64,000 nt of DNA from an uncultured Gammaproteobacteria bacterium. Lineage in GTDB: Bacteria > Patescibacteriota > Patescibacteriia > Patescibacteriales > UBA12465. A model generated the notes under the pieces. The model saw nothing but the letters and a program-made list of their open reading frames with translations. It had not been told where the DNA came from and did no database searches. Made by a program: the position numbers and the translations under genes. Of the stretch, positions 8,002-36,901 are shown piece after piece (the stretch's first letter is position 1; each line of letters starts with the position of its first letter). The stretch lies in contig CAZYNT010000003.1 in assembly GCA_964648205.1 (NCBI GenBank), forward strand, positions 5,357-69,356. The letters run 5' to 3'.

Positions 8002-8005
8002 ATTA

Positions 8006-9499
8006 TTAAACAGTGATTAGGCCTATACCTGCCCAGCCCTGCCCGGGGTCAGCAATAAATTCTTCGGTTTTATAGCCGGCTTTTATTTCCGACCAGAGGC
8101 GGTCGACTTGCGATTCCAAGTCTGTTTGATTGGGCGCGATGTCATGCAGGGCGATTAAGCCGCCGGGATGAACTAAATTTTTATAATTTTCAAAATCCTG
8201 CTTGGCGCCATTATAACTATGATCGCCGTCAATAAACATAAAATCTACCTGGCGGCCGGCAAGAATTTTTCTTACTTGTTCCAGACTTTCCGACTTATGC
8301 GAGTCGGCTTGGATTAATTTTATAGTCTGCTTATCTTGGGAAAAACTCGAAAATAAGCGTTTTTGGCAGGAAAGATAGCCGCCGCCGAATTTTCCAAACG
8401 GGAGATCCAGGCTTATTATCAAGGCATCGGGCGGCGCTATTTTCGTCCAGAAAAATAAAGTCCCGCCGGTCGCCGTGCCGATTTCTAAGATTATTTTTGG
8501 TGCTATTTTTTTGACGGCGGACATTAGACCGATTATCTCTTGCGGAACTTGAGCGGGTTTGATATTGATATTTAAACCGCGCTTATTCGGTCCGTAACGA
8601 AAATCACTTGCTAAACGCCATAATTCTTCCGGGGTTTTGGCTTTTAGTGATTTTTTTCGGAATGATTTTATCGCCGCCCTTATTAGAAGAGGGAAATAAA
8701 ATTTATCTAACAGCGTTTTAGCGGTATTTATCATTCTTCTTTGCGGAAAGAGCTCCATAAATTTTATTTTTTTAGGCGAGTTATTAATTTTTCTCCTAGT
8801 GTAAGCGTTTAATTTAGCAATAAAATAGAGAAGCCGGCCGCGGAATTTTTTGAAGCCGTAACTAGAAACAGATGACGGGTTCATTCGGTAGTAGTATAGC
8901 GTTTTGTCAATAAATAATGGTTCAGTAACCTCTTCTAGCTTATAAAACAAGTCTTTATCTTCTGAACAACGATTAAAAAAATAATCATAGCCACCAACTT
9001 TCATGTAGTCTGTTTTTTTAAATGTAAAAAAATGGCTAATACAATTTTGGATTAGGTTACTTGATCCCAGTGGTATTTGTCGGTTGGTTCCTTTGGAAAT
9101 TTGTCTTAATTTTTTATCACAAATAATCATTTGTGAATATATTAGGCCACTATTATTTATATTGTATTGCCAAAGCATTGTTTCAACCGCCTCTCTGTCT
9201 AAAACATCATCGCTGTCTATAATCCCAATAATTTCGCTACTCGAATTTTCTATGGCTTTCCTTCGCGAATAGACAATACCCAAATGTTTATTATTTACGA
9301 TGAGCTTAATTTTATTGTTGTCTAGATATTTTTTAATAATATTTAACGAGTCGTCGCTTGAAGCATCGTCTACAATTATTAATTCCCAATTATTATTAGT
9401 TTGTTTTAGGACAGATTCAATCGCTTCCGCTATATATTCAGAGCGATTTAAATTAATCATGATTAATGAAATTGAATTATTTATCATAGTCTTATCCAA
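8006..9499 (-). CDS. Bifunctional GT2 glycosyltransferase / class I SAM-dependent (CmcI/Methyltransf_24-like) methyltransferase fusion
   Basis: The N-terminal part is GT2-like (SLIMINLNRSEYIAEAIESVLKQT...IIVDDASSDDS...IIDSDD). The C-terminal part is methyltransferase-like (ILEIGTATGGTLFFW...FMFIDGDHSYNGAKQDFENY...GGLIALHD). Confidence 0.7.
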   Translation of the reverse strand: MDKTMINNSISLIMINLNRSEYIAEAIESVLKQTNNNWELIIVDDASSDDSLNIIKKYLDNNKIKLIVNNKHLGIVYSRRKAIENSSSEIIGIIDSDDVLDREAVETMLWQYNINNSGLIYSQMIICDKKLRQISKGTNRQIPLGSSNLIQNCISHFFTFKKTDYMKVGGYDYFFNRCSEDKDLFYKLEEVTEPLFIDKTLYYYRMNPSSVSSYGFKKFRGRLLYFIAKLNAYTRRKINNSPKKIKFMELFPQRRMINTAKTLLDKFYFPLLIRAAIKSFRKKSLKAKTPEELWRLASDFRYGPNKRGLNINIKPAQVPQEIIGLMSAVKKIAPKIILEIGTATGGTLFFWTKIAPPDALIISLDLPFGKFGGGYLSCQKRLFSSFSQDKQTIKLIQADSHKSESLEQVRKILAGRQVDFMFIDGDHSYNGAKQDFENYKNLVHPGGLIALHDIAPNQTDLESQVDRLWSEIKAGYKTEEFIADPGQGWAGIGLITV

Positions 9500-10374
9500 T
9501 TATCAGGTATTATGGTATTTGTATCTATTTTGGGATTATTTAGCCATTTTTTGGGAGCAATAACTATTTTTTCCAGGGATGGATTTAACCAAGCGCCCCA
9601 CCACGAGAAAGTGCTATTAGCGATTATGTGATGTTTGCATTTACTCATTAATATTAAATCCTCATAATTTTTTAATCCCGAAATAAAAACTGTTTCCGGC
9701 CCTAAATTTAAATTATCTTTGCACCAGCCGATATCATCAGAGAAAATAAAAAAAATAGGATTTGGCAGCTTGTCTTTTAAAAATTTCGTCGCCCGTAAAT
9801 AATAGGCGACGTCGCATGTGCCGTGGTATTGGTTTATGTTTTTGTTATTAATATAGTCGCCCCGTCTAATATGGACAGAGACCGACGTGTTTTTATCAAT
9901 TTTTTCCACTAATTCTTGGGGGAGCCGATCGCTATATTCTTTTTTCAGCTTAAAATCATTACGAATAATATCGGAAATTTCGGAAAAATATTTTTCATTA
10001 TTAAAGTAACCCAGATAAGAAAAATTATCGCTATTTTTAACCAATGTAGGATCAAAACAAAACTCCGTTTGTTCTTTTATGACAGGGAGGTGAGATTTTT
10101 TAATTTTTTTTGTTTTATTGTCTAATTCAAAATATTTTAAATTATACTGGCGTTTGTTTTGTCCGATTTCCTTAATTTTTTTTGCGACACTTTCCTTTGC
10201 AAAAATGGCAATTATAATTTTAATAATATTTTTGCAAAGATATTTAAAATTATTTTTTTTATATAAAAAAGTTTCAAGGTTTAGCTCAAAGCCGTACTTT
10301 GTGGATATATTTTTTCCAAAAGCATATTGGAACATTTGATTCCCGAGTCCGCCCATTAGCTTGACCGTTATCAT
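9484..10374 (-). CDS. GT11 family alpha-1,2-fucosyltransferase-like glycosyltransferase
   Basis: I place the start at MITVKLMGGLGNQMFQYAFGK. GT11 motifs are present: HIRRGDY, FIFSDD and IANSTFSWWGAWLN. Confidence 0.75.
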   Translation of the reverse strand: MITVKLMGGLGNQMFQYAFGKNISTKYGFELNLETFLYKKNNFKYLCKNIIKIIIAIFAKESVAKKIKEIGQNKRQYNLKYFELDNKTKKIKKSHLPVIKEQTEFCFDPTLVKNSDNFSYLGYFNNEKYFSEISDIIRNDFKLKKEYSDRLPQELVEKIDKNTSVSVHIRRGDYINNKNINQYHGTCDVAYYLRATKFLKDKLPNPIFFIFSDDIGWCKDNLNLGPETVFISGLKNYEDLILMSKCKHHIIANSTFSWWGAWLNPSLEKIVIAPKKWLNNPKIDTNTIIPDNWIRL

Positions 10375-10375
10375 A

Positions 10376-11104
10376 TTATTTTTTTGTAAACCAAAAACAA
10401 CCGCAACCATAGTTTTCTTCTCTGACTAGGGATGGGTCGGCATTTATTATGATTTTTTTATTTTTTTCCGAAATTAAGGTGAATTCTTTAAGTTCAAGAT
10501 CGGTAAAATATGAAAGTATCTGTTCATAAGAATAAATTCGATGGGAATTGAACATAATACGCGGGCGTCCAATCGGCACAACAAATAGGAGATTGCCACC
10601 CTTGGCCAGAACCCTTTTTAATTCATTAATTGCCCTTAAATCACCTTGGGGATCTATCTTGTCCCCATAACGACCGAGGCCGATATGTTCTATAGTGTGC
10701 ATGCAAGACAGAGAAGCGATGCTTTCACTAGAAAAATGTAAATTATTTAAATCAGCTTTTCGGCTGATAAAATTATCCAAGATTATATTAGCCGGCCGAT
10801 AATCATAAAATTCTGTCGGAACGAAAGCCGATATTAATGTAGAAAAATGAAGCGTTGATGATATATCCACATGTTTTTCCGGCTTAGTTCCAGATATTAT
10901 TCTAGCCGCCCAGGCGGGATGATAAATGTAGTGAAGATCAAAATCAGTTTCGCTCGTCTTGTCATCCAAGCGAGGCCTCAGATTTTTAATTTTTATTTTA
11001 AAACGCCCATCATTATTCTTGGTAAATTTTTTAAGATCACTCATTAAAAAGAGGGCTTGAAATATGCTTAATAACGTTTTAAAAATTTTTTTAATTTTTG
11101 TCAT
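10376..11104 (-). CDS. Class I SAM-dependent methyltransferase-like protein (DUF268-like)
   Basis: SCMHTIEHIGLGRYGD...LKRVLAKGGNLLFVVPIG resembles the post-motif II/III region of small glycan methyltransferases. The gene sits inside the glycan locus. Confidence 0.5.
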   Translation of the reverse strand: MTKIKKIFKTLLSIFQALFLMSDLKKFTKNNDGRFKIKIKNLRPRLDDKTSETDFDLHYIYHPAWAARIISGTKPEKHVDISSTLHFSTLISAFVPTEFYDYRPANIILDNFISRKADLNNLHFSSESIASLSCMHTIEHIGLGRYGDKIDPQGDLRAINELKRVLAKGGNLLFVVPIGRPRIMFNSHRIYSYEQILSYFTDLELKEFTLISEKNKKIIINADPSLVREENYGCGCFWFTKK

Positions 11105-11161
11105 CGCAATAGATATTATTGAATATATATTTTTTATACCATTAAATTTACTAATTCATTT

Positions 11162-11932
11162 TTAAGTAATTTTTATTAATATTCTAAAATATCCAATTAA
11201 ATATTTTTTGATTAGTAGTAACTTTGCGTAGATTGGTTGATGAAATTTTTTATATATTTTAAGCATTTCTCTAAGACCATCAAATATACCCTTTAATGAT
11301 TGAGAGTTAGCTTTATCTTCAAGACGGTAAGAGCCGATAATTTGGTTATAATAATAGAGTTTTGGATTTTCTTTTAGAGCCTTCATCCAAAATTCAATAT
11401 CCCCGGCTACTCGGTATTCAAGGTCGAATCCGCCAGTTTTTAAATAAAGCTCTTTTTTAAAAAATACCCCTGGTTGGGCTGGCACTCCGCCTGAATTTTT
11501 AATTAAAGCTTTTTTAAAAGAAATATCAGATGGTGGCTTATATACGCCTTGGAGATTTTCACGGCTATCGATCAAATTAATATTCCCATAAACAACATCG
11601 ATATCATTATTTTTTTTGAATATTTCCGCTACCTCATTTATTATTCCGGCTTGAAAATAGTTATCAGCGTCTAACCAAGAAAAAATTTCCCCATGAGCCA
11701 TTGCGAATCCTTTATTCATAGCGTCTGTGATCCCCTTATCTTTTTCGGAAATCCAAATTAGATTATAACTTTTCTCATATTTTTTTAGCAGCTCTACTGT
11801 TCCATCTTTAGAGCCGCCGTCTATAACTATATGTTCGATAAAATTACCTTGGTTTTTGACGCTCAAAATACATTCTTCAAGTGTATTAATACTATTAAAA
11901 GCCGGTGTAATTATAGAAATTATTTTTTGCAT
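11162..11932 (-). CDS. Glycosyltransferase family 2
   Basis: ISIITPAFNSINTLEECILSVKNQ...HIVIDGGSKDGT...WLDADN. Confidence 0.8.
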   Translation of the reverse strand: MQKIISIITPAFNSINTLEECILSVKNQGNFIEHIVIDGGSKDGTVELLKKYEKSYNLIWISEKDKGITDAMNKGFAMAHGEIFSWLDADNYFQAGIINEVAEIFKKNNDIDVVYGNINLIDSRENLQGVYKPPSDISFKKALIKNSGGVPAQPGVFFKKELYLKTGGFDLEYRVAGDIEFWMKALKENPKLYYYNQIIGSYRLEDKANSQSLKGIFDGLREMLKIYKKFHQPIYAKLLLIKKYLIGYFRILIKIT

Positions 11933-12624
11933 TAACTTTGTTTATTATTTTTTATACACACCAAATGATAGGCAATGGCGGGATTATTCCAAACCATTTT
12001 TTGCGTGATGTTTGAAATAATATCCCCGATAAATGCCGGTTTTATTTTTGGCTCCCATTCCTGTCCTCTGAGAAATTTTAAACCCGATAATCCATTACAC
12101 TTAAAGCCTAATTTTTTCATTTCTTTTTGCGTCCAGCCAGATTTATGTATTTGATTTTGGTTATCATCATAAATCCTTTGCTTGATAAAACCATTCGGTG
12201 TAATAATAATTATTTTATTAGCAATCTTTTCTAGTTTTGGTAGAAAATTTTTAAAGTCTGTTTTTTCAAGATGTTCAATAACGTCTATTAGAAGGACGCA
12301 ATCAAAAGAGTTGGGCTGAAAATTTATTTTGAAGATGTCCGTATTTATGTATTCAGAATGAATTTTGTTTTTTTCTAAGTTTTTAAGTATATATGGTTCA
12401 AAAATATCTACGCCAACCGAATAGAAAATTAAAGGAGGTTCTTTTTTTAAATATCTTAACGGTGAATTTGGTCCACATCCAAGATCTAATACTGATTTAC
12501 AATCTTTAAGTTCTTTTCTGAGAATCGATTCAATAATTTCCCCTGTTGTGGGAAATATTTTTTTAAAACCTATTCTGTATATATAGTTTATTAATTTTTT
12601 CATAAAAAATTGTAAATGCGCCAA
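11932..12624 (-). CDS. Class I SAM-dependent methyltransferase
   Basis: Motif I is VLDLGCGPNSPL and the post-I acidic region is LLIDVIEHL. The stop is adjacent to the start of the downstream GT2 gene. Confidence 0.7.
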   Translation of the reverse strand: MAHLQFFMKKLINYIYRIGFKKIFPTTGEIIESILRKELKDCKSVLDLGCGPNSPLRYLKKEPPLIFYSVGVDIFEPYILKNLEKNKIHSEYINTDIFKINFQPNSFDCVLLIDVIEHLEKTDFKNFLPKLEKIANKIIIITPNGFIKQRIYDDNQNQIHKSGWTQKEMKKLGFKCNGLSGLKFLRGQEWEPKIKPAFIGDIISNITQKMVWNNPAIAYHLVCIKNNKQS

Positions 12625-12627
12625 TAG

Positions 12628-14436
12628 CTACTTGTAATTTTTTTGAGATTTTTTTACTTCTTCGGAAATCCACGCGTAGGTTGCAGATAGGCCTTGCTTT
12701 AGGGGCAAGCTGGGAGCCCAATTAAGTTTTTCTTTTATTAATTTGTTGTCTGAGTTTCTCCCCCGAACCCCTAACGGTCCGTCGATATGTTTTATATCTA
12801 ATTTTTTATTAGCAATTTCCATCGCCATATGAGCTAGCCCATTAATAGTGACCATTTCCTCAGATCCTATATTAACTGGTCCGTTGAAATTAGAATCCAT
12901 TAATTTTCTTATCCCGTCCAAGCATTCATCTATATATAAGAACGATCGAGTTTGCTCACCGTCTCCCCATATTTCGATTGTCCCTCCGTCTGACGTCTCG
13001 GCAACCTTACGGCAAATAGCTGCCGGAGCCTTTTCTTTACCGTTGCACCACGAGCCCTCTGGCCCAAAAATATTATGGAACCTTGCGATGCGGACGTTTA
13101 GCTCGTAATTTCTCATAAAAGAAAAATACAATCTTTCGCTAAAAAGTTTTTCCCAACCATATTCACTATCCGGCGAGGCGGGGTACGCCGAGTCTTCGGA
13201 ACACTTTGGATTTTCTGGATCCAACTGATTATAAAGAGGGTAAATACAGGCAGAAGAAGAATAAAATATTTTTTTAATTTTAGCTTTACAACCGTAGTAA
13301 GCGATATTTAAATTAATTGTGGCCGAGTTGTGCATTACGTCAGCATCGTGGTTGCCGCTAAATATATATCCCGCTCCTCCCATGTCGGCGGCAAGCTGGT
13401 ATACTTCATCGAACGCTCTGTCTAGGATTCTTTCGCATACCAGGGGATCTCTCAGATCGGCAAGTATAAAATCATCCGCCTCGCTTGTGCTAAATTCCGG
13501 TTTTTTTAAATCGACTCCACGTACCCAAAATCCTTCTTTTTTTAATCGTTTGACTAAGTGGCTGCCGATAAATCCTCCCGCGCCACAAACTAATGCTGTT
13601 TTTTGTGAGTTTTCCATAAGATTAATAATTTTTTTTATTCCATCATTGAGGCTTGTTTTAGGCTGCCAAAATGAAAGTATATATTTATTTGGTTCATTTT
13701 TTTTATTTTTTTGGACGTCATCTGATATATTACTGGTTTCTATTACCGATCCCGGAAAATTTTCGGCGATTATTTTTGCTACGTCTAATATAGAATTCCA
13801 TTGAAAATTAGTAATATGAAGCTCTTCGTTTCTTGGTATCTGTTCATATCGTCTTGATAACTCAAGCAGACATTCACAGCAATCATCCGCGTAGAGAAAT
13901 TGTCTTTCCTCTGCGCCATCAGTCATTAAAATAATTTTTTTATTTTTTTTTGCTTTTATTATTAAATCAGTAATAACGTGAGATTTTTCCATATTTCTTT
14001 CCAGCCCGTATACATTCCAAAATTTAACAACAATTCCGTTTAAAGATTTAGTATAAGCCTCTCCGAGCGCCTTGAGTCTACCATAATTAGAGTAAGACAT
14101 GTTAGACATTTGGCTCGATGCGAAGATGAACGGTTTATTATATTTTTTTAAAACTTCAAAGGTATTATTGATTATCTTTGTGTTGTTAGAGATAAATTCA
14201 TTGGAATCCTGATAAGTTTTAAGATATCTAGATCCGCCCACATCAAAAGCTAAAAAGAATACAAAGTCGGCCTCTTTAATCGTTTTATCAAGAAGGCTAT
14301 TGTTGTAAATTCTTAAATCTTGAGAAGCATCGTCGACAATATCAAATTCGATTACTTCGTCGTTGTGACTATTTTTTATAATTTTAGTTAAAGTAGAACC
14401 TATTTGTCCCGCCGAACCTAGTACTAAATATTTCAT
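12628..14436 (-). CDS. Tandem short-chain dehydrogenase fusion: N-terminal RmlD/4-reductase-like domain + C-terminal GDP-mannose 3,5-epimerase-like domain
   Basis: There are two Rossmann motifs (VLGSAGQIGS near residue 5; CGAGGFIGSHL near residue 292). The N-terminal half has YGRLKALGE (YxxxK). The C-terminal half closely resembles plant and bacterial GME from memory (AADMGGAGYI, SSACIYP, RFHNIFGP, KEKAPAAICRK, RSFLYIDEC, GVRGRNSDN). Confidence 0.75.
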   Translation of the reverse strand: MKYLVLGSAGQIGSTLTKIIKNSHNDEVIEFDIVDDASQDLRIYNNSLLDKTIKEADFVFFLAFDVGGSRYLKTYQDSNEFISNNTKIINNTFEVLKKYNKPFIFASSQMSNMSYSNYGRLKALGEAYTKSLNGIVVKFWNVYGLERNMEKSHVITDLIIKAKKNKKIILMTDGAEERQFLYADDCCECLLELSRRYEQIPRNEELHITNFQWNSILDVAKIIAENFPGSVIETSNISDDVQKNKKNEPNKYILSFWQPKTSLNDGIKKIINLMENSQKTALVCGAGGFIGSHLVKRLKKEGFWVRGVDLKKPEFSTSEADDFILADLRDPLVCERILDRAFDEVYQLAADMGGAGYIFSGNHDADVMHNSATINLNIAYYGCKAKIKKIFYSSSACIYPLYNQLDPENPKCSEDSAYPASPDSEYGWEKLFSERLYFSFMRNYELNVRIARFHNIFGPEGSWCNGKEKAPAAICRKVAETSDGGTIEIWGDGEQTRSFLYIDECLDGIRKLMDSNFNGPVNIGSEEMVTINGLAHMAMEIANKKLDIKHIDGPLGVRGRNSDNKLIKEKLNWAPSLPLKQGLSATYAWISEEVKKSQKNYK

Positions 14437-15933: not shown

Positions 15934-18396
<2,463 letters not shown>

Positions 18397-25663: not shown

Positions 25664-28402
25664 ATGAATATTTTTAAACTGTTCGGCGACGCTAATGAAA
25701 AAATCGTAAAAGCGATGCGGCCGACGATTGATAAAATCGCGAGCTTTGAGCCGGAATTTCAGAAATTAAGCGCCGAAGAATTAAAAAACAAGACGAATCT
25801 TTACAAAGAACGCCTGGCCAAAGGCGAAACCCTTGATGATCTTTTGCCCGAAGCCTATGCCACCATGCGCGAGGCCGCGAAACGGATTTTAAATCAGCGC
25901 CATTTTGATGTGCAGCTTATCGGCGGCATAGTTTTGCATCGTGGCCAGATTGCTGAAATGAAAACCGGCGAAGGAAAAACTTTGGTCGCGACCTTGCCGC
26001 TTTATTTGAACGCTCTTGAAGGCAAAGGGGCTCATCTTATTACCGTTAATGATTATTTGGCGCGTTTGGGCGCCGGCTGGATGGCGCCCGTTTTTTATGC
26101 GCTCGGCTTGACGACCGGCGTTATAGTCCACGAGAATGCTTTCGTCTATGATCCTGAGTATAATGACGATTCCCAATACGACGAACGCTTGAAACACTTT
26201 AAGCGGATTCCGCGCCGCGAAGCTTATTATTGCGATATTACCTATGGAACGAATAATGAATTCGGTTTCGATTATCTGCGCGACAATATGGTCTATACGC
26301 TTGATCAGACCGTGCAGCGCCCGCTTAACTACGCCATCGTCGATGAAATCGATTCGATTTTGATCGACGAAGCGCGCACCCCTCTGATTATTTCCGCGCC
26401 GGCCGAAGAATCAACCGACAAATATTTTAAATTTGCGCAGCTGGTAGAGCGCTTGGAAGAAAAAGACGATTATAATATTGATGAAAAGATGCGCGCCTCA
26501 ACCTTGACTGAGGGCGGCATCGCCAAGGTTGAAAAAATGCTGGGTTTGGGCAATATTTATGTCGAAGGCGGAGTCAAAGAGGTCCATCATTTGGAACAAG
26601 CCCTTAAAGCGCGCGTCTTGTTCAAGCGCGACAAGGATTATGTCGTCAAAGACGGCGAAATTATCATTGTTGATGAGTTCACCGGGCGTTTAATGCCGGG
26701 CCGCCGCTATAGCGAAGGCCTGCATCAGGCGATTGAGGCTAAAGAGGGCGTAAAAGTCCAGAAAGAATCGCAGACCATGGCCACGATTACTTTTCAAAAT
26801 TTATTCCGGCTTTATAAAAAATTATCCGGTATGACCGGAACTGCCGCGACCGAAGCGGAGGAATTCCATAAAATCTATAAACTAGAAACAATCGTCATCC
26901 CGACTAATAAGCCGAATGTCCGCCGCGACTTGAACGATTTGATTTATCGCACGGAAATGGATAAATTCAACGCCGTTATCCGCGATGTTAAAGAGAGGAA
27001 TAAAAAAGGGCAGCCGGTTTTAATCGGTACGATTTCTATCGAGAAAAATGAAATTTTTACCGCTCTGATGGAGCGCGAAGGCCTGCGCCCGCAAATGCTC
27101 AACGCGAAGAACCACCAGAAAGAAGCTGAAGTTATCGCGCAGGCCGGGCGCAAAGGAGCGATTACGCTGGCGACCAATATGGCCGGCCGCGGCGTCGATA
27201 TTATTCTAGGCGGCAATCCGCCGCTGGAAAGCGAGCAGGCTGAAGTCAGGGCTTTAGGAGGGTTGCATGTAATAGGCACCGAACGCCACGAATCGCGCCG
27301 CATCGATAATCAGTTAAGAGGCCGCGCCGGCCGCCAAGGCGATCCGGGCTCATCCCAATTTTATGTCTCAACCGATGATGATCTGATGCGTATTTTCGGG
27401 GGCGATCGCATGAAGGGATTGATGAAGACTTTAAATGTCCCAGCCGATATGCCGATTGAGAACAAGATGATTTCCAAATCAATCGAATCCGCGCAGAAGA
27501 AGGTTGAAGGAAATAATTTTGATATCCGGAAACATCTGGTCGAATATGATGATGTTATTAATAAGCACCGCACGGCTATATATAATCGCCGCCGGGAAAT
27601 TTTGGAAATCGCCGAAAATATCAAAAGCGAAGCAAGCCGAGGAGAGAACGGGGAAATAATTGAAGCGAAAACTTTAACAGCTATCGTCAGCGAGATGATT
27701 CAAGACGAAATTACCGCAGTTGTCAGCTTCCATACGGCGAGCGAAGATAAGAATGAATGGAATTTTAAAGAAATATCGGAAACCATGCGCACGATTTGGA
27801 ACACTTCGTCTGAATTGCCGGCTAAATTAGAAAAAATCATCAAGAGTGATAAGAATAAGGACGGCCTCAGGGAAGAAATGAAAGAATATTTGATTAAAGA
27901 AGCGGCCGATGTTTATAACTCTTTGGCTGGAAAGTTCAAGGCGGCTAATGTTGATTTTAAAGAAGTCGAAAAAGGAATTTTAATTCGGGCTATTGATGAA
28001 AATTGGGTTGAGCACTTGGAAACCGTCGATTATCTGCGCCGCGGCATCGGTTTGCGCGGCTACGGCCAGCGCGATCCGCTGGTTGAATATAAAAAAGAAG
28101 CCTGGCGCATGTATCAGGAATTGAACGCCTTGATAAATAAAAATGTTGTTTATTCTATCTATAAAACTGCGGACGCTCTCGCCTTGGCGAATACGCCAGA
28201 GATAAGATTATTTGCCGATCAAGGGGCGACCAATTTAGAATTTACCGGCGCCGCCAAAGAAATGCACCGCCAAGCTGAAGAGCGCAATACGATAGATCTG
28301 GTGCATGAAAAAATAAAGGACGAAAGCGGCCAGAAAGTCGGCCGCAATGATCCGTGCCCCTGCGGCAGCGGCAAGAAGTATAAGCAGTGCCACGGGAAAT
28401 AA
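25664..28402 (+). CDS. secA: Preprotein translocase ATPase SecA
   Basis: 912 aa. Motifs: MKTGEGKTLVATLP, DEIDSILIDEARTPLIIS, MAGRGVDI. The C-terminal zinc finger is CPCGSGKKYKQCHG. Confidence 0.95.
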   Translation: MNIFKLFGDANEKIVKAMRPTIDKIASFEPEFQKLSAEELKNKTNLYKERLAKGETLDDLLPEAYATMREAAKRILNQRHFDVQLIGGIVLHRGQIAEMKTGEGKTLVATLPLYLNALEGKGAHLITVNDYLARLGAGWMAPVFYALGLTTGVIVHENAFVYDPEYNDDSQYDERLKHFKRIPRREAYYCDITYGTNNEFGFDYLRDNMVYTLDQTVQRPLNYAIVDEIDSILIDEARTPLIISAPAEESTDKYFKFAQLVERLEEKDDYNIDEKMRASTLTEGGIAKVEKMLGLGNIYVEGGVKEVHHLEQALKARVLFKRDKDYVVKDGEIIIVDEFTGRLMPGRRYSEGLHQAIEAKEGVKVQKESQTMATITFQNLFRLYKKLSGMTGTAATEAEEFHKIYKLETIVIPTNKPNVRRDLNDLIYRTEMDKFNAVIRDVKERNKKGQPVLIGTISIEKNEIFTALMEREGLRPQMLNAKNHQKEAEVIAQAGRKGAITLATNMAGRGVDIILGGNPPLESEQAEVRALGGLHVIGTERHESRRIDNQLRGRAGRQGDPGSSQFYVSTDDDLMRIFGGDRMKGLMKTLNVPADMPIENKMISKSIESAQKKVEGNNFDIRKHLVEYDDVINKHRTAIYNRRREILEIAENIKSEASRGENGEIIEAKTLTAIVSEMIQDEITAVVSFHTASEDKNEWNFKEISETMRTIWNTSSELPAKLEKIIKSDKNKDGLREEMKEYLIKEAADVYNSLAGKFKAANVDFKEVEKGILIRAIDENWVEHLETVDYLRRGIGLRGYGQRDPLVEYKKEAWRMYQELNALINKNVVYSIYKTADALALANTPEIRLFADQGATNLEFTGAAKEMHRQAEERNTIDLVHEKIKDESGQKVGRNDPCPCGSGKKYKQCHGK

Positions 28403-28496: not shown

Positions 28497-29552
28497 ATGT
28501 TTAATCCACAATACATACTTAATAACAAAATACTCAAGAATCTTACGGATATTGCCGAAGCTAAGGCTGTAATTGAAAGAGCCAGGCTTCTTCCGGCGCA
28601 AGAACTGCACTTAAAACGTCAGGCGATAGTTAGAATGTCTCACAGCTCCACGGCGATTGAAGGCAATATTTTGAATATTCGCCAAGTTGAAGCACTTGAG
28701 GCCGGAAAAAAAATAGAAGCCCCAGCCCGCGATATTTATGAGGTAAAAAATTATCTAGCGGTTTTAAAATACATCAATAAAGTGGTAGAGGAGAAAAAAG
28801 AAATTGACGAAAAAGTACTTTTAAAAATTCATGCTATCGTAACTAATAAGACTTTGCCAGATATTAAATCGGGGCGCTACCGCCAAGAACCGGTCTATAT
28901 CGCGCAAAGACAGTTAGGTCTTCCTGACAGGATTATTTATACCGCGCCAAAAGCCGGACTTGTTCCGACGCTTTGCGCGGATCTTATGCAATGGATTAAA
29001 AAAAGTGAAGCTGGGGAGATTAACCCGGTTATTATAGCTGGCGAAGCTCATCTGGAACTAGCCGCTATTCATCCCTTTGTCGATGGTAACGGCCGAACCG
29101 CTCGAGCGCTAGCTACCCTAATCCTTTATAAGTGCGGCTATGATTTTCGACACCTCTTCGCGCTTGAAGATTATTATAACAAAGATTTGCTGAGTTATTA
29201 TCGATCAATAGATACCGGTGAAAATTACGAAAAGAGAAAAACGGATAGCACAATCTGGCTTGAATATTTCGTTGCCGGATTTCGCGAAGAGATTATGAAT
29301 GTGAAAGTTCAAGTGACATCATTGGCTGTTAGGAAAATAGGTAAATCCGTTGAGAAGCAGATATATTTGACGCCTAGGCAACAGCAGATTTTGGATTTTA
29401 TTGATCAGTTGAGGAAAGTGACGACTAAGGATGTCATGGATATTCTCCGGTGCCCCAAGAGAACAGCCCAGCTGGAGCTCCAAAAACTTAAGAAAATAGG
29501 GATTATTAAATCAGCCGCGAAAGGCAAAGCAACTTATTATAAGCTGAAATAA
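28497..29552 (+). CDS. fic: Fic-family AMPylase (class II, intramolecular inhibitory helix) with C-terminal winged-helix domain
   Basis: The Fic motif HPFVDGNGRTAR is canonical. The inhibitory motif STAIEG ([ST]xxxE[GN]) lies N-terminal to it. The C-terminal segment LTPRQQQILDFIDQLRKVTTKDVMDILRCPKRTAQLELQKLKKIGII looks like a wHTH. Confidence 0.85.
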   Translation: MFNPQYILNNKILKNLTDIAEAKAVIERARLLPAQELHLKRQAIVRMSHSSTAIEGNILNIRQVEALEAGKKIEAPARDIYEVKNYLAVLKYINKVVEEKKEIDEKVLLKIHAIVTNKTLPDIKSGRYRQEPVYIAQRQLGLPDRIIYTAPKAGLVPTLCADLMQWIKKSEAGEINPVIIAGEAHLELAAIHPFVDGNGRTARALATLILYKCGYDFRHLFALEDYYNKDLLSYYRSIDTGENYEKRKTDSTIWLEYFVAGFREEIMNVKVQVTSLAVRKIGKSVEKQIYLTPRQQQILDFIDQLRKVTTKDVMDILRCPKRTAQLELQKLKKIGIIKSAAKGKATYYKLK

Positions 29553-29591
29553 TTTTTAATTACGATTATTGTTAGCAAATAAAAAGGATTT

Positions 29592-30752
29592 ATGGACAAA
29601 AAATACCCTCAAAAAATTACTAATAACGAACAGATAGAATTTGCTGTTAACGAATTCGGTCTTTACGCGATTAGCATTACAGCCAGCTGTGAAAAGAACA
29701 ATGATTTGAGAATCGAGATTGATGAGAAACAGTTCAGAGAAATCCCGGCCTCTGAAAATATTCAAACATATAATATCCCTCCAGCCTGGAATGGCGCCAC
29801 ACTCAAGGGCCTGAAGAAGACCGTAGTTTTTCTGTTGAAGTTAAACAAAGGAAAGCACACACTTAAATTTTTCCCCAAATCCGAAGCTTCATTGGAAGAT
29901 TTTAATTACAAAATTATTTCTAATTACCGAAAAATAGATTTCAATTTTGAAGAGCGGGCTCAAGATGGCGACGGGCGACCCTGGATTACCTTTTCGTTGG
30001 TAGACTTATCTTTAATTTCGATTATAGCTGAATCAAGTGTTTCTTGGCATTGGTTTGACGGTGATGATGTTAAGCTTATAATTGACAACCGCACGGAAGA
30101 AAACTCCTTGTCCAAGCGGTGGAAGTACTGGGTCTGGCACGCTATTCCTATACAGATTTTTTCCGGCTCCAAAAGAAAACAGAGAACCTTTTTAAAGAAT
30201 TTGCCTTTAGGTACTCATTATATCGAATTTTGGGCGGATAAAACTCCAACTTTGCATCAAGTTAGCCTTGATCTCGGTGATTTTGAATTAAAACGAACGC
30301 CCACTAGAGATGATCCTAAATGGACGGGAGATTTTATAGATGACACGGACACAATACTGCTGGCGAGATTGATTTTGGGTGAAATGGAAGGTCGGCCAAG
30401 AGCAGCTAAATTGGGCGCCGGTTTTACGGTTATTAATCGATTGGAGAAATCTAAAGCTAATTGGGGGCGGTCGATTCAGGAAATAATTCTTAAAGAGAAC
30501 CAGTATGACGCTTTTCACAATGAAAAGACCAGAAACAAAGTTAGAGATCCTCTCGGCTATGTTGATAAATCAGAATGGGAAGAATCTTATGCCGTCGCCG
30601 TGGCAGTATTAGAGGGAACAGAAAAGGATCCGACAGCGGGGGCAACCCATTTTTATTCTACCAATACCGACACGAGGTTTCCTCGGTGGGCTAACAAGGA
30701 GACTTTTAGAGTCAAAATAAACGTTACCTACTTCTATGAACTTGAGAGTTAA
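29592..30752 (+). CDS. Signal-less protein: duplicated N-terminal beta-sandwich-like module + C-terminal SleB/CwlJ-type cell-wall hydrolase domain
   Basis: The C-terminus (LLARLILGEMEGRPRAAKLGAGFTVINRL...ENQYDAFHN...GATHFYS) resembles the Hydrolase_2 (SleB) pattern A..vyaEarGE...V..NR...QF......A..F. There is no N-terminal signal peptide. Two N-terminal segments look related (...KGKHTLKFFP... and ...LGTHYIEFWA...). Confidence 0.6.
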   Translation: MDKKYPQKITNNEQIEFAVNEFGLYAISITASCEKNNDLRIEIDEKQFREIPASENIQTYNIPPAWNGATLKGLKKTVVFLLKLNKGKHTLKFFPKSEASLEDFNYKIISNYRKIDFNFEERAQDGDGRPWITFSLVDLSLISIIAESSVSWHWFDGDDVKLIIDNRTEENSLSKRWKYWVWHAIPIQIFSGSKRKQRTFLKNLPLGTHYIEFWADKTPTLHQVSLDLGDFELKRTPTRDDPKWTGDFIDDTDTILLARLILGEMEGRPRAAKLGAGFTVINRLEKSKANWGRSIQEIILKENQYDAFHNEKTRNKVRDPLGYVDKSEWEESYAVAVAVLEGTEKDPTAGATHFYSTNTDTRFPRWANKETFRVKINVTYFYELES

Positions 30753-31440
30753 ATTTCCACCATTTTTAAAGAGCCTCTTATTGCCAACTTTTTTGACAAG
30801 TTGCTTTTGGCTATTGATTCTTATTATCTTATTTTCTTATCTAGATAAGGGAAAAGAGACAAATGAAAACTCTTATTTTAATAACGGCCCCACGCAAAAT
30901 AATTATGAGGCTCTGGATAGAAAGAATACTTACGAAGAGTTATCTCCAAACGGAAATAGAAAAGTGATTAGATATAAACTGAATTATCATTCGGAATTAT
31001 TCTCAGAAAATTATACGACCTATCTAAACAACAATGTTATTCTGGCGGTGGTGGAAAAAAATGGCGATACCGAGCGAGAGAATTTTTTATTCGTTGGAGA
31101 AGAGAGAACCGGCGACCCTCATTGGCTGGGGAATAAATATCTATTTTTTAAGGCTTATTGCGGCACATCATGCCAGGGGTTGGTTTTGTTGGATACTGAA
31201 AATAATCAAGTCTGGAAAGGGGCGCTTGGTTATTTTTCCGGGAAAGACGAGAAACCAAGAACCAGTTTTAGCGGTTGGTTCGATCAGGACTTTAGATTTG
31301 AGGATTCAGTTAGTCAGATTCATGCCGCTATTATTGACAATAAGCCGTATTTAATTTTTGATATGGAAAACGGGCAAGGAGTAGAGAGCGGGCAAAAAAG
31401 ATTTCTTTTCACGGGCAATAAGCTTATTCTAGAATCTTAA
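30736..31440 (+). CDS. Hypothetical N-terminally membrane-anchored protein
   Basis: Contains a TM helix (LLLPTFLTSCFWLLILIILFSYL) and no motif I recognise. It overlaps the upstream hydrolase gene by 17 nt. Confidence 0.4.
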   Translation: MNLRVKFPPFLKSLLLPTFLTSCFWLLILIILFSYLDKGKETNENSYFNNGPTQNNYEALDRKNTYEELSPNGNRKVIRYKLNYHSELFSENYTTYLNNNVILAVVEKNGDTERENFLFVGEERTGDPHWLGNKYLFFKAYCGTSCQGLVLLDTENNQVWKGALGYFSGKDEKPRTSFSGWFDQDFRFEDSVSQIHAAIIDNKPYLIFDMENGQGVESGQKRFLFTGNKLILES

Positions 31441-31595: not shown

Positions 31596-32435
31596 ATGAT
31601 AGAGAGAAAAAACAAAAAACAAATCACTCTTTTTTCCGGGCAAGAAATTCGGCGTTTTTGGGATGATAAAGAAGAAAAATGGTATTTTTCGGTGGTGGAT
31701 ATTATAATGGCTTTAACTGATAGTGAGGATCCTAATGACTATTGGTATAAAATGAAAATTCGTGTAAAAAGTGAAGATGGTTTTCAGTTGTCGACAATTT
31801 GTCGACAACTGAAATTTTTAGCTAAAGATGGCAAGAATTATTTATCCGATGCCGCCGATACCGAAAGCATTTTTCGTATTATCCAATCAATTCCTTCGCC
31901 GAAAGCTGAACCCTTTAAGCTCTGGCTGGCTCGGGTCGGATACGAACGGGTTGAAGAAACCGAAGACCCAGAAAAAGCGATTCGAAGAGCTCTCGCAACT
32001 TATTTGAAAAAAGGTTATTCTAAAGATTGGGTTGATTTGCGTTTAAAGAGTATTGAAATTAGAAAAGATTTGACAAACGAGTGGGAAGAGCGTGGCGTTA
32101 AGGAAAAGAATCAGTTTGCTATTTTAACCGACGATATAACTTTTGCCTGGGCAGGATTAAAGACGAAGGATTATAAAAAAATAAAAGATTTAAAAAAAGA
32201 AAGTTTGCGGGATAATATGACCAACTTAGAGTTGGTTCTAAATATGCTCGCTGAGGCATCGACCACTGAGATTTCTAAAAAAGAATTACCAAATACGTTC
32301 GATAAAAATAGACAAGTAGCTAAAAGGGGCGGCGGCGTGGCCGGAGTAGCCAGACAAGAGCTAGAAAAGCAAACTGGACACGCGGTTGTTTCTCGGCGGA
32401 ATTTTTTATCAAATAAAAAACATTTATCGAGATAA
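31596..32435 (+). CDS. Bro-N domain / DinD-like (DNA-damage-inducible protein D-like) protein
   Basis: The N-terminus (LFSGQEIRRFWDDKEEKWYFSVVDIIMALTDS...) has a Bro-N-type pattern. The overall length and the helical C-terminal half resemble E. coli DinD as I recall it. Confidence 0.6.
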   Translation: MIERKNKKQITLFSGQEIRRFWDDKEEKWYFSVVDIIMALTDSEDPNDYWYKMKIRVKSEDGFQLSTICRQLKFLAKDGKNYLSDAADTESIFRIIQSIPSPKAEPFKLWLARVGYERVEETEDPEKAIRRALATYLKKGYSKDWVDLRLKSIEIRKDLTNEWEERGVKEKNQFAILTDDITFAWAGLKTKDYKKIKDLKKESLRDNMTNLELVLNMLAEASTTEISKKELPNTFDKNRQVAKRGGGVAGVARQELEKQTGHAVVSRRNFLSNKKHLSR

Positions 32436-33835: not shown

Positions 33836-36800
33836 ATGCCAGACAATCAAGCTAATAATAAAAAAGAAGCGCCGGTGAATGCTTTCGTCGCGATGGAGGA
33901 AGCGGTTTTAAATTTTTGGGATGAAGCCAAGATTTTTGAGAAATCCCTTAAGGGTGATGCGCCCCGCGGCCATTTTATTTTTTTCGAAGGGCCGCCGACC
34001 GCTAACGGTATGCCCGGTATCCATCATGTTTTAGCCCGCGCCTTTAAAGACGTAATGCCCCGGTACAAAACCATGAATGGTTTTCGGGTCGAACGCAAAG
34101 CCGGCTGGGATACGCACGGCTTACCCGTCGAATTACAGGTGGAAAAACAATTAGGAATTTCTGGCAAACCTGATATTGAAAAATATGGCATTAAAGAATT
34201 TAATCAAAAATGCCAGGAAAGCGTCTGGGTTTACTTAGATGAATGGCAGAAGCTGACGCGCCGCATCGCTTTTTGGGTCGATATGGAACACCCTTATATA
34301 ACTTATGATAATTCTTATATCGAATCTCTGTGGTGGATATTAAAAGAGATTGATAAGAAAGGCTTGGTGTATAAAGGACATAAAGTAGTTCCGCATTGTC
34401 CGCGTTGCGGTACCGCCCTTTCCAGCCATGAAGTAGCTCAAGGTTATAAATTAACCAAGGATAATTCAGTTTATCTGAAATTTAAAGTGACAACGGGGAA
34501 TGCGCTTGTAAATCCGGGTGATTTTATTCTCGCTTGGACGACGACTCCTTGGACTTTGCCGGGGAACGTCGCTTTAGCGGTCGGCCGTGATATTGATTAT
34601 GTAAAGGTTACAACATTAAACGTTGATAAAAGAGCTAAAGATGGCTCTATAGAATATGAAAATTTAATACTTGCTAAAGATGTTTTTGAGAGACTGGACA
34701 AACTAGACGATAAAAATCCTCTTAAATTAGCCTTTAACTTAGTTTATATTCATGACAAGAAAGAAGGAGAGGCCACTATTAAGGGTTCAATAGTAAAAAA
34801 AGAATTTAAAGGCTCGGAATTGATCGGTTTAGAATATGAACCCTTGTTCGATATTGCCTCGATAAAAGCCGAGGCCGCCACGAAGAATAAAAAGGCCTAT
34901 CGCGTCGTGCCGGCTGATTTTGTTACGACCTCCGACGGTACCGGCGTCGTCCATACCGCGGTCATGTACGGGGAAGACGATTATAACTTAGGGGAAGTGG
35001 TCGGATTGCCGAAAGTCCACACCGTCGATGAGGCCGGTCATTTTACCGGCGATTTATCAGCCTATGGCTTAAACGGCAAGTTCGTAAAGAGCGCCGCGAC
35101 TGAAACTATTATTTTAGATTACTTAAAAGCGCAAGGGATCTTGTTCAAAGAAGAAGTTTACGAACATGATTATCCTTTTTGCTGGCGCTGCGATACCCCC
35201 TTATTATATTATGCGAAGAACTCCTGGTTCATTGAGGTAACAAAAGTTAAGGAAGAATTAATTGCAAATAATCAGAATATAAATTGGGTGCCGGATCATA
35301 TTAAAGCCGGGCGTTTCGGCGAATGGCTTAATAATGTTAAAGACTGGGCGATTTCGCGCGAGCGCTATTGGGGTACGCCGCTTCCGATTTGGGAATGCGA
35401 AAAATGTAATAAGCATCGCGTTATCGGCAGCCTCGAGGAACTGTCTGAATTGAGCGGCCGAAAAACGACTTTAAAATCAGACATTCATCGTCCGGAAATT
35501 GATGCTTATGAAATAACTTGCGCTCTTTGCGGCGAAAAAATGAAGCGCGTCAAAGAAGTTTTTGATTGTTGGTTTGATTCCGGCGCCATGCCTTATGCGC
35601 AAAACCACTATCCTTTTGAAAAAGCGGAATTGATAGATAAGAAGGAGCAGTTTCCCGCCGACTTCATCTGCGAGGCAATTGACCAGACGCGCGGCTGGTT
35701 CTATACCTTGCTTGCGGTTTCAACCTTACTCGGTAAAGGTAATCCGTATAAAAATGTAATCTGCTTGGGTCTTATCAATGATAAATTCGGCAAGAAGATG
35801 TCGAAATCAAAAGGAAATATCATCAGCCCTTGGGAAGTAATTTCTCTTTACGGAGTCGATGCCGTGCGCCAGCATATGTATACTCTTAACCAGCCGGGCG
35901 AAGGGAAGCGCTATGATTTAGATGATGTGAAAGATGTTTTCCGCAAGAATATCATGCTTTTATGGAATGTATATAAATTTTACGAGATGTATGCTGTTCC
36001 GGAGAGCGCCAAGATTGAGAAGCCGGAATCAAAAAATGTTCTAGATGTTTGGATTCTGGCGAAACTGAATGAAATAATCAAAACAATCAGCGCGGAATTA
36101 GACGTTTTTCATGTCTACGAAGCCGCCCGCCAAATTCCGGAATTTATCGACGAGCTTTCGACTTGGTATCTGCGCCGCTCGCGTGATCGCTTTAAATCAG
36201 ACGATGAAGCCGACAAGAAGAATGCGCTTGGAACGACCCGCTATGTTTTAAGCGAACTGGCGAAATTAATGGCGCCCTTCATGCCGTTTATAGCGGAAAG
36301 TTTATGGCAGAGGGTAAGCGGCAACGATTTTAAGGATAATAATAAATCCGTCCATCTGGAGAAATGGCCGACGGCCGATGAGACGGACAATAGCCATCTG
36401 CTCACTGATATGAATATAACCCGCCGCATCGTTGAGCTCGGCCTGGCGAAGCGCGACGAGGCGGGAATCAAAATCCGCCAGATGCTTGGGAAAATTACGA
36501 TTAAGATTAAAAATGAAATTACCCTTGAATATATTGATTTGATTAAAGATGAATTGAATTTGGCGGCGGTTGAATTTGCGGAAACGGATGATGATAAGAT
36601 TGAAGTGGAATTAGATTTGGTGATTACGCCGGAATTGAAAGAAGAAGGATTGAAGAGGGAACTGATTAGATTTATTAACATGCTGCGCAAAGAAGCGAAT
36701 CTGAGTTTGCGCGATGAGACGAGCGTCTATCTGGCCGGCGCCGGCGCGGAATTAAAATTGGCTTTGGCTAAAAAGAAGGCTGATATCATGAAAGATACTT

Positions 36801-36901
36801 TGAGCACCGATTTAAATTTTGTTGAAGCCTTGCCTGAAGTGCTGGTCAAAAAAGAAATAAAAATTGATGAAATAAAATTAATGCTCGGCTTAAAGAAGTA
36901 G
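33836..36901 (+). CDS. ileS: Isoleucyl-tRNA synthetase, type 2 (eukaryote/archaeal-like)
   Basis: EGPPTANGMPGIHHVLARAFKD (HIGH region), GWDTHGLPVE and KMSKSKGN. The 1021-aa length and PPTANG-type HIGH context are characteristic of type-2 IleRS. Confidence 0.95.
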   Translation: MPDNQANNKKEAPVNAFVAMEEAVLNFWDEAKIFEKSLKGDAPRGHFIFFEGPPTANGMPGIHHVLARAFKDVMPRYKTMNGFRVERKAGWDTHGLPVELQVEKQLGISGKPDIEKYGIKEFNQKCQESVWVYLDEWQKLTRRIAFWVDMEHPYITYDNSYIESLWWILKEIDKKGLVYKGHKVVPHCPRCGTALSSHEVAQGYKLTKDNSVYLKFKVTTGNALVNPGDFILAWTTTPWTLPGNVALAVGRDIDYVKVTTLNVDKRAKDGSIEYENLILAKDVFERLDKLDDKNPLKLAFNLVYIHDKKEGEATIKGSIVKKEFKGSELIGLEYEPLFDIASIKAEAATKNKKAYRVVPADFVTTSDGTGVVHTAVMYGEDDYNLGEVVGLPKVHTVDEAGHFTGDLSAYGLNGKFVKSAATETIILDYLKAQGILFKEEVYEHDYPFCWRCDTPLLYYAKNSWFIEVTKVKEELIANNQNINWVPDHIKAGRFGEWLNNVKDWAISRERYWGTPLPIWECEKCNKHRVIGSLEELSELSGRKTTLKSDIHRPEIDAYEITCALCGEKMKRVKEVFDCWFDSGAMPYAQNHYPFEKAELIDKKEQFPADFICEAIDQTRGWFYTLLAVSTLLGKGNPYKNVICLGLINDKFGKKMSKSKGNIISPWEVISLYGVDAVRQHMYTLNQPGEGKRYDLDDVKDVFRKNIMLLWNVYKFYEMYAVPESAKIEKPESKNVLDVWILAKLNEIIKTISAELDVFHVYEAARQIPEFIDELSTWYLRRSRDRFKSDDEADKKNALGTTRYVLSELAKLMAPFMPFIAESLWQRVSGNDFKDNNKSVHLEKWPTADETDNSHLLTDMNITRRIVELGLAKRDEAGIKIRQMLGKITIKIKNEITLEYIDLIKDELNLAAVEFAETDDDKIEVELDLVITPELKEEGLKRELIRFINMLRKEANLSLRDETSVYLAGAGAELKLALAKKKADIMKDTLSTDLNFVEALPEVLVKKEIKIDEIKLMLGLKK

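Follow-up and report, generated by a model that had tools for sequence, protein, structure and literature searches.

A conserved patescibacterial gene pair: a leaderless protein with a SleB-type lytic domain and its membrane-anchored partner

Introduction

In Bacillus, the gene sleB is followed by ypeB, whose product is an N-terminally anchored partner protein, and SleB-type domains are lytic transglycosylases. Among phage lysis proteins, holin T of T4, which belongs to class III, combines a short N-tail in the cytoplasm with a single transmembrane (TM) helix and a large globular domain on the outside that contains cysteines. Endolysins whose C-terminus is a TM domain have been described in Salmonella phage BSPM4 (M4Lys; PMC7143992) and Hafnia phage Enc34 (ORF39; PMC8943055), and in both cases lysis depends on the TM domain and proceeds without a holin or Sec, by a route that is unexplained. 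Here we describe two overlapping open reading frames, ORF1 and ORF2, in a 64,000-nucleotide stretch of contig CAZYNT010000003.1 (assembly GCA_964648205.1), referred to as the window, together with their relatives across Patescibacteria. ORF1 encodes a protein with a SleB-type lytic domain and no export signal, and ORF2 encodes a single-pass membrane protein. By analogy with phage endolysins, we tentatively read the two as a cellular, membrane-tethered, endolysin-like wall lysin specific to Patescibacteria, which would be kept inside the cell and gain access to the wall via its partner; this reading seems to us plausible and short of probable.

Patescibacteria, which are ultrasmall, account for much of the diversity of bacteria, and no role has been assigned to most of the proteins that are conserved in and specific to their lineages, the ORF1 family among them. 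The pair presents a paradox, in that a confidently identifiable wall-cutting enzyme sits in an architecture that should keep the enzyme from the wall. Solving it could show how a wall, the cell's own or that of a host, is opened without a classical export signal, or could instead add a lysis-based module to the known systems of defence or antagonism. In the literature that we searched on SleB, cell wall hydrolases and lytic transglycosylases in Patescibacteria (the candidate phyla radiation, CPR), we found no description of the ORF1-ORF2 family or of its architecture; one review mentions, in general terms only, a proposal that patescibacterial lytic transglycosylases breach host envelopes (PMC11665869).

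Results

ORF1 contains a SleB-type catalytic domain

The features of ORF1 that bear on its catalytic activity and its start site are as follows (aa, amino acids).

29592..30752, plus strand: ORF1, 386 aa, with three domains, a tandem beta-sandwich and a SleB-type lytic transglycosylase domain (from the ORF list)
29584..29588, plus strand: ribosome-binding site AAGGA of ORF1, read from the sequence
30339..30749, plus strand: Hydrolase_2/SleB-type catalytic domain, aa 250-386 (Pfam, profile, Foldseek and PHROG)
30381..30383, plus strand: codon of the putative catalytic Glu264 in the motif GEMEG, with G263 and E264 invariant in 72 homologues

The C-terminal part of ORF1 matches Pfam family PF07486 (Hydrolase_2) with an E-value of 5.6e-11 and a score of 43.4 bits (gathering cut-off 27), and the match, spanning aa 269-382, covers profile positions 3-100 of 100. 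Sequences in the Protein Data Bank (PDB) gave nothing when searched by phmmer with ORF1 alone, and a family profile was needed; it matched 4F55 and 4FET, both catalytic domains of SleB, at E 1e-8 and aligned G263-E264 with the YGE motif of 4F55 (YGES), whose Glu is the catalytic residue of SleB. An AlphaFold2 (AF2) model of ORF1, built on 72 homologues, reached a pLDDT of 93.9 and a pTM of 0.83, and comprises two beta-sandwiches (approximately residues 7-122 and 129-227) and a helical domain (253-382). Both SleB structures (4FET_A and 4F55) superpose on this model with Foldseek TM-scores (target) of 0.73-0.76 and an rmsd of 3.4-3.9 Å over 131 columns. Foldseek also pairs the lytic domain with phage SleB-type hydrolases, and endolysin families of PHROG are matched at E 1e-11.

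Score, fold and conserved Glu all place ORF1 in the Hydrolase_2 domain family, though not in SleB proper; the SleB equivalog of NCBIfam, TIGR02869, scored 27.4 bits against a cut-off of 236.5. An earlier, sequence-only reading of this locus had proposed a C-terminal SleB/CwlJ hydrolase domain, which the PF07486 score, the profile matches to 4F55 and 4FET and the fold uphold. Its word for the enzyme, muramidase, was imprecise, as SleB-type domains are lytic transglycosylases. Judged from these comparisons, the lytic transglycosylase domain of ORF1 is real and probably active.

The ORF1 family has no leader

A TAA in the frame of ORF1 at 29580-29582, three codons 5' of the ATG, excludes an upstream start that would add a signal peptide, an escape that the sequence-only reading had allowed for. 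The AAGGA site is also correctly spaced, and the boundaries of both ORF1 and ORF2 are identical in gene calls on three independent public assemblies, so that a missed upstream start or leader was rejected. Hydropathy analysis found no hydrophobic stretch at the N-terminus of ORF1, the highest-scoring window (KD19 1.62, at aa 132) being a beta-strand region. No N-terminal TM helix or signal was present in any of 120 close homologues or of 150 family representatives. ORF1 has more than 200 homologues over its full length (385-425 aa), and all of them come from lineages of Patescibacteria (Moran-, Pace-, Woese-, Roizman-, Davies-, Magasanik- and Portnoybacteria and others). The leaderless state, with neither a Sec nor a Tat signal, is a property of the whole family, and the absence of a signal peptide and TM segment that had been read from the single sequence is thus borne out.

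ORF2 is a single-pass membrane protein with an all-beta domain

The second gene and its parts are the following.

30736..31440, plus strand: ORF2, 234 aa, single-pass membrane protein (from the ORF list; 40 homologues)
30775..30843, plus strand: TM helix of ORF2, aa 14-36, KD19 2.49 (AF2 helix 10-38)
30919..31434, plus strand: predicted external all-beta domain of ORF2, aa 62-233, AF2 pLDDT >90 over most of its length
31096-31125, plus strand: conserved loop GEERTGDPHW of ORF2, invariant
31159-31173, plus strand: cysteine pair CGTSC of ORF2, an invariant CGTxC pair

A basic tail, MNLRVKFPPFLK, precedes the TM helix and is predicted to be cytoplasmic, and aa 39-56, between the helix and the beta domain, form a disordered linker in the AF2 model. 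The homologue alignment shows C142, G143, C146, P128 and W130 to be invariant. ORF2 has no match in Pfam or NCBIfam at E <= 1, including to PepSY or any other YpeB-like domain in Pfam, and no relative in PHROG, in PADLOC or among PDB sequences, profile search included. Foldseek returned no significant structural relative of its model; its top-ranking matches were partial ones to beta-propellers (E >= 0.02), and matches to ubiquitin were spurious. The sequence-only reading had described an N-terminally anchored protein with an external domain of unfamiliar fold, and this description agrees with the TM helix at aa ~14-36, the all-beta domain and the Foldseek result.

ORF1 and ORF2 form a conserved and often fused unit

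The two genes meet in a short overlap.

30736..30752, plus strand: ORF1/ORF2 overlap of 17 nt (TATGAACTTGAGAGTTAA), with the stop region of ORF1 lying over the start of ORF2 and ORF2 in the +1 frame

This overlap, already noted in the sequence-only reading and confirmed here, implies that translation of the two genes would be coupled. We scanned one genome per species for 185,579 species, using the motifs of N-module 2 (the second N-terminal domain of ORF1, described below) as query, and confirmed 135 relatives of ORF1, a distribution that is patchy and not universal. The best 80 of these 135 relatives lie in loci with Patescibacteria titles or uninformative labels of metagenome-assembled genomes (MAGs), save one Saganbacteria locus. 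ORFs were called in those 80 loci and searched with purpose-built hidden Markov models (HMMs), and 75 loci were informative. In 51 of the 75, a same-strand gene with an N-terminal TM helix starts <=60 nt from the ORF1 stop, and 42 of these 51 genes are recognisably ORF2-like. In a further 17 loci, the enzyme itself runs on into a TM helix and a C-terminal domain. Linkage was thus found in 68/75 loci by ORF calling, and in 71/75 after tblastn had rescued three of the seven apparent exceptions, so the possibility that the two genes are never linked elsewhere, which the earlier reading had left standing, does not apply. Reciprocally, ORF1 lies directly upstream in 24 of 32 metagenome loci seeded with ORF2-specific motifs. 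ORF1 and ORF2 are a conserved unit, which in relatives is often one protein.

The junction between the two genes takes several forms. The commonest overlap is 4 nt (ATGA; 25 loci), and a 17-nt overlap occurs in seven loci by ORF calling and additionally in L003 by tblastn. In the fused Hydrolase_2 forms, the junction has the pattern ...FYEL/NLKK-x-GGF(I/S)K(I/L)-TM-ectodomain and the ectodomain contains CGTxC; the ORF1/ORF2 boundary of the window falls exactly at the FYEL motif. The 17-nt overlap arises because the conserved FYEL end of ORF1 overlaps the conserved MNL start of ORF2. The +1 frame of ORF2 and the occurrence of natural fusions led us to consider programmed +1 frameshifting to an ORF1-ORF2 product, which we set aside, as the commonest junction is a plain ATGA overlap and the FYEL/MNL overlap explains the 17-nt form.

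Orphan ORF2-like genes were seen in metagenome loci L087, L102, L104 and L109/L110. By their sequences, the genes next to the orphans in L109/L110 resemble a small toxin-antitoxin (TA) pair, and the gene next to that in L104 looks Bro-N/Fic-like. A variant pair in L106 (2169-3687; also in L107) keeps Hydrolase_2 and ORF2 and has a different N-terminal region of ~130 aa in place of the tandem N-module; in L106 it adjoins a gene for what looks like a PilB-type pilus ATPase.

The enzyme is predicted to face the cytoplasm

Topology was assigned from hydropathy and from the bias of positively charged residues (K/R) in the 15 residues flanking the TM helix. Separate ORF2 proteins (n=32) contain 129 K/R on the N side and 79 on the C side (24 proteins vs 5), and fused proteins (n=17) contain 58 and 29, with the SLT forms reaching 7 vs 0. 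Under the positive-inside rule, this bias predicts a cytoplasmic enzyme side and a beta-rich domain outside, that is, a single TM helix in the N-in/C-out orientation. The FG-GAP repeats found in 13 of 65 long family members and the conserved CxxxC fit an external ectodomain.

Taken at face value, this predicted topology would suit a cytoplasmic enzyme that processes imported wall fragments, recycling or scavenging host muropeptides, with the ectodomain capturing or sensing the substrate. The N-modules, which are glycan-binding-like, and the view that Patescibacteria rely on host-derived building blocks (PMC11665869) point the same way. A single TM helix cannot transport a substrate, however, no transporter is consistently linked to the pair, and the SH3_3 and SLT domains of relatives are typical of enzymes that act on the polymeric wall. 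No cytoplasmic lytic transglycosylase is known either, and we regard such a role as very improbable.

The topology bears equally on a housekeeping autolysin, which would reach the cell's own wall by non-classical export and act in growth, division or the insertion of pili or secretion machines, with ORF2 localising or regulating it as in SleB-YpeB. The gene order, a SleB-type enzyme followed by a signal-anchored partner, is that of sleB-ypeB; the pair is kept across many Patescibacteria classes, and paralog families are usual for autolysins. The presence of SH3 wall-binding modules and of modules like carbohydrate-binding modules (CBMs), the mostly housekeeping neighbours and the few loci that adjoin genes read as pilus ATPase-like also agree with this explanation. 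Against it, no member carries an export signal (0/120 and 0/150), ORF2 lacks PepSY or another YpeB-like domain, and the distribution is patchy at 135 relatives in the 185,579-species scan. Furthermore, the TM helix and charge bias of the fused forms place the enzyme and the ectodomain on opposite sides of the membrane, so that an interaction like that of SleB and YpeB would not be possible in them. On balance, we think an autolysin of this kind unlikely.

A constant N-terminal module is combined with exchangeable lytic domains

The N-terminal part of ORF1 consists of two modules.

29592..29963, plus strand: N-module 1, aa 1-124, beta-sandwich (AF2 strands 7-122), motifs DLRIEID, AWNG and GKHTLKF
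29964..30311, plus strand: N-module 2, aa 125-240, second beta-sandwich, motifs DGDGRPW, WFDGDDVKLIIDN and HYIEFWADKTP

N-module 1 has a weak Pfam match to GH115_C (aa 33-96, E 3.7e-4). The most conserved motifs of the family sit in N-module 2, with D158, W180, H209, D216 and P219 invariant, and the conserved motifs of the N-modules are acidic and rich in Trp and His. Foldseek pairs the N-terminal part with binding modules built as tandem beta-sandwiches, CBM-like or collagen-binding: ColG s3a-s3b, the CBM35 of Xyn30D, the C-terminal domain of GH115, BcsB and the ectodomain of SIDT1. The two modules share their fold and have equivalent motifs (DLRVEID and DVKLIIDN; GxHTLxF and GxHYIEF). The sequence-only reading had called them related; two CBM-like beta-sandwiches are indeed present in the model, and the support for a duplication from the sequences themselves is marginal (BLASTP E 1.5; hhalign P 0.007 over 59 columns in which the equivalent motifs are aligned, with a control at P 0.23).

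A phmmer search of 1.84 billion representatives with the N-module alone (E <= 1e-3) defined a family of 299 clusters at 50% identity, restricted to Patescibacteria. In the best 150 of the 299 clusters, the N-module is always at or near the N-terminus; 61 of these representatives are TM-less proteins of 300-470 aa, and 54 of at least 470 aa have exactly one late TM helix. About 45% of the representatives of the family have the enzyme and its partner in one polypeptide, joined via the TM helix. In a Pfam census, the long forms (n=65) contained SLT (37), SH3_3 (28), FG-GAP repeats (13) and Hydrolase_2 (2), and the short forms (n=61) contained Hydrolase_2 (23), SLT (5) and DUF1402 (1). The family plan starts with the tandem N-module, which is constant, and goes on to a muralytic domain that can be exchanged, the TM helix and a beta-rich ectodomain that varies; gene fission just before the TM helix is frequent. 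Because unrelated muralytic folds (Hydrolase_2, SH3_3 with SLT, DUF1402) replace one another with the rest of the plan kept, wall cleavage is probably the selected activity of the family.

Sequence identities are mosaic. Compared with some loci, ORF1 is 50-59% identical in the N-module and 30-38% in the catalytic domain, and compared with others the values are 30-36% and 47-56%. The ectodomain of ORF2 diverges fastest: its mean pairwise identity is 0.27, and the two parts of ORF1 have values of 0.40 and 0.43. Co-inheritance of the catalytic domain with ORF2, apart from the N-module, was not demonstrated, the rank correlations being 0.37 vs 0.37, and neither was the corresponding cassette hypothesis.

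Three further observations concern individual members. One Roizmanbacteria MAG holds five divergent copies of ORF1 (L003, L017, L023, L049 and L066), 36-54% identical to that of the window; ORF calling found a TM-anchored gene directly downstream of four of them, and tblastn an ORF2 homologue downstream of L003. The DUF1402-type members L069, L070 and L073 have no TM helix of their own and are followed by a different TM-anchored protein of ~197 aa with an AxVVLGA motif, which may resemble envelope proteins of the DUF218/YdcF type. One long member has a weak Pfam match to PliI, a periplasmic lysozyme inhibitor (E 6.6e-5), which would favour an inhibitor or immunity role if it lies within the ectodomain.

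This modularity raises the question of a polymorphic peptidoglycan-degrading toxin directed against competitors or the host, with the N-module as a trafficking or targeting domain for some export route not yet recognised and ORF2 as an anchored extracytoplasmic immunity protein or inhibitor, placed at the site of the target. A leaderless effector with a coupled downstream partner predicted to face the wall would be expected of such a system, as would a constant N-module joined to swappable lytic domains and a partner whose type tracks the lytic domain (the CGTxC domain accompanies Hydrolase_2, and another TM protein accompanies DUF1402). The faster divergence of the partner (0.27 vs 0.40 and 0.43), the domain mosaicism, the several divergent copies per genome, the orphan ORF2 genes, the flexible regions with TA, defence and transposase genes and the weak PliI match in one member can be read likewise, and the proposal noted above that patescibacterial lytic transglycosylases breach host envelopes would agree (PMC11665869). 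However, in ~45% of representatives the supposed toxin and immunity protein are one polypeptide split by a TM helix, unlike known pairs, which would leave the toxin tethered inside its producer. Moreover, Pfam finds no known trafficking domain in ORF1, no secretion system is consistently nearby, and the ectodomain has no detectable similarity to known inhibitors of lysozyme or of lytic transglycosylases. The toxin/immunity analogy drawn in the sequence-only reading is weakened by the fusions and keeps some force from the polymorphic catalytic domains and the orphan ORF2 genes; we consider it rather unlikely to be the explanation.

The pair lies in a defence-type islet

In the window, the pair lies between secA (25664-28402) and ileS (33836-36901), in a small defence-type islet with the following neighbours.

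28497..29552, plus strand: Fic and winged-helix protein of SoFic type, upstream neighbour (Pfam Fic E 1.1e-17; PADLOC SoFic E 2.4e-50, near full length)
31596..32435, plus strand: Bro-N protein, PADLOC candidate PDC-S13, downstream neighbour (Pfam Bro-N E 5.7e-8; PDC-S13 E 8.4e-126)

The Bro-N neighbour also matches phrog_15286, and homologues of the SoFic-type protein flank ORF1 relatives in 13 loci. We treat the SoFic and PDC-S13 flanks as context, as they are not shown to be parts of the module. The 150 nearest neighbours in 48 other loci include seven SoFic, seven PDC-S01 (AAA_14/DUF4143), five AbiEi, five AbiEii and five IS200-type transposases, and the pair looks like a resident of flexible islets. 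No secretion system and no transporter recurs among the neighbours of ORF1 relatives.

The PHROG endolysin matches, the phage SleB-type hydrolases found by Foldseek and the PHROG match of the Bro-N neighbour could suggest a remnant prophage lysis cassette, with endolysin and holin and no cellular role. The N-module has no match in 50,697 phage records (INPHARED), and IMG/VR gave one weak match, to the catalytic domain alone; on these searches, a prophage origin was rejected. In addition, no phage structural genes were seen near the pair, which is flanked by secA and ileS, and the pair, with both ORFs intact, recurs in lineages of phylum rank amid dozens of distinct sets of housekeeping genes. 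We give the prophage explanation hardly any credence.

Several other features of the window were recorded. The Bro-N coding region contains, at 31782-31814, an inverted repeat that is perfect over 15 bp (TTTCAGTTGTCGACA ATT TGTCGACAACTGAAA) and has a T-run behind it. Rfam, run over the whole 64 kb, returned no family at gathering score, and no tRNA, rRNA or riboswitch was detected; promoter and terminator scans gave nothing informative. The GC content is 0.31-0.36 at 8-14 kb (8001-14000) and peaks at 0.49 at 16-18 kb (16001-18000), compared with ~0.43 elsewhere, and these segments may be foreign or otherwise special DNA. The sequence-only reading suggested that, in an episymbiont, the wall of the host could be the target; the label 'episymbiont' for the source organism is a presumption derived solely from the affiliation of the homologues with Patescibacteria.

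Discussion

A membrane-tethered, endolysin-like lysin would work as follows. The enzyme would accumulate at the cytoplasmic face of the membrane, docked to the basic juxtamembrane tail of its partner or, in fused forms, continuous with it. Passage to the peptidoglycan would be possible for it only if granted by the TM partner, in the manner of holin-dependent endolysins and, more closely, of the C-terminal-TM phage endolysins. The outer beta-propeller-like domain would regulate or sense, and its topology would be comparable to that of the periplasmic domain of the T4 holin, which also has a single TM helix. The outcome would be a triggered autolysis, local or complete. As defence and toxin-antitoxin genes are often nearby, such autolysis could serve abortive infection or altruistic lysis; controlled wall opening is equally compatible. 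The analogy to an endolysin with an export partner goes back to the sequence-only reading, and it is retained for the leaderless enzyme, the predicted single-TM N-in/C-out partner and the precedent of lytic domains joined to a TM domain; we modify it in that the family is cellular and not phage-borne.

A number of points weigh against the tethered lysin. ORF2 shows no similarity to any holin, and its topology resembles that of class III only; as holins are very diverse, it may still be one. The sequence of its TM segment shows little conservation, which is what a simple anchor would show. The analogy to endolysins is one of architecture only, because the family is absent from IMG/VR and INPHARED. 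In its acidic, Trp-rich conserved motifs the N-module resembles modules that bind Ca or glycans outside the cell, which would suit an exported enzyme better. Up to five divergent copies in one genome of roughly 1 Mb are odd for a suicide module, and genuine orphan ORF2 genes exist in five or six of the 32 ORF2-seeded loci. Neither ORF1 nor ORF2 matches a PADLOC-DB 2.0 family at E <= 0.01, only the flanking genes do; most neighbours of the relatives are varied housekeeping genes, and the defence counts are raw numbers, not an enrichment. Finally, the topology is predicted from hydropathy and charge bias only, and the whole of the support for a tethered lysin comes from sequences and models.

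A more specific form of the tethered lysin would be a sensor-gated autolysis particular to Patescibacteria, in which the outward beta-propeller-like sensor controls, via the single TM helix, the release of a stored lytic transglycosylase for abortive-infection or altruistic-lysis defence. It would explain why the pair is nested among SoFic, AbiE, PDC-S01 and PDC-S13 genes. A comparably novel alternative would be a signal-independent delivery route that carries a large folded N-terminal enzyme across the membrane of an ultrasmall cell to attack the wall of a host. That either of these applies is, in our view, doubtful. Whatever their role, modular enzymes that combine a tandem binding module with an exchangeable lytic domain are candidate lysins with unusual wall-binding specificity.

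Compared with described systems, the pair belongs to no known lysis cassette, effector/immunity family or PADLOC system. ORF1 resembles SleB in its catalytic family (PF07486), in its fold and in the conserved Glu, and in both gene pairs the gene after that of the enzyme encodes a protein anchored by its N-terminus. It differs in that ORF1 has no signal peptide and a tandem beta-sandwich takes the place of the PG_binding_1 domain of SleB, to which ORF1 has no match. ORF2 lacks the PepSY domains of YpeB, and for the fused relatives opposite sides of the membrane are predicted for enzyme and partner domain, unlike SleB and YpeB. Also, SleB is a spore cortex-lytic enzyme, and Patescibacteria are not known to form spores.

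Effector/immunity pairs that act on peptidoglycan in contact-dependent antagonism, for example Tse3-Tsi3 and Tge-Tgi of the type VI secretion system (T6SS), are similar in that a leaderless lytic effector is followed by a partner of the wall compartment, and in their polymorphic lytic domains, paralogs and orphan partners. In contrast to them, ORF1 has no trafficking domain and no linked secretion apparatus, fusions are frequent in its family, and the ectodomain of ORF2 is beta-propeller-like, with no similarity to known immunity proteins.

With holin T of T4, ORF2 shares its predicted topology plan and cysteines in the outer domain, and as in holin-endolysin cassettes a leaderless lysin adjoins a membrane protein. 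The differences are that ORF2 resembles no holin in sequence or fold (Pfam, PHROG, Foldseek and profile), that the enzyme comes first in the window pair, that there is no phage context and that fusion of the lysin to the TM helix is frequent in the family.

M4Lys, Enc34 ORF39 and the endolysins of chi-like phages resemble the fused relatives, in which a leaderless lytic domain is followed by a TM helix in one polypeptide. This arrangement is not that of the ORF1 of the window; it occurs in the 17 fused loci and, as one late TM helix, in 54/150 representatives. The phage proteins have a PHA02564 catalytic domain and end at the TM domain, whereas the patescibacterial family uses Hydrolase_2, SLT or DUF1402, continues into an ectodomain of 170-280 aa, begins with a tandem module of 240 aa and is cellular, and in the window its TM part is a separate gene. 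The access problem that ORF1 poses is the same unsolved one as that of the phage endolysins with a C-terminal TM domain.

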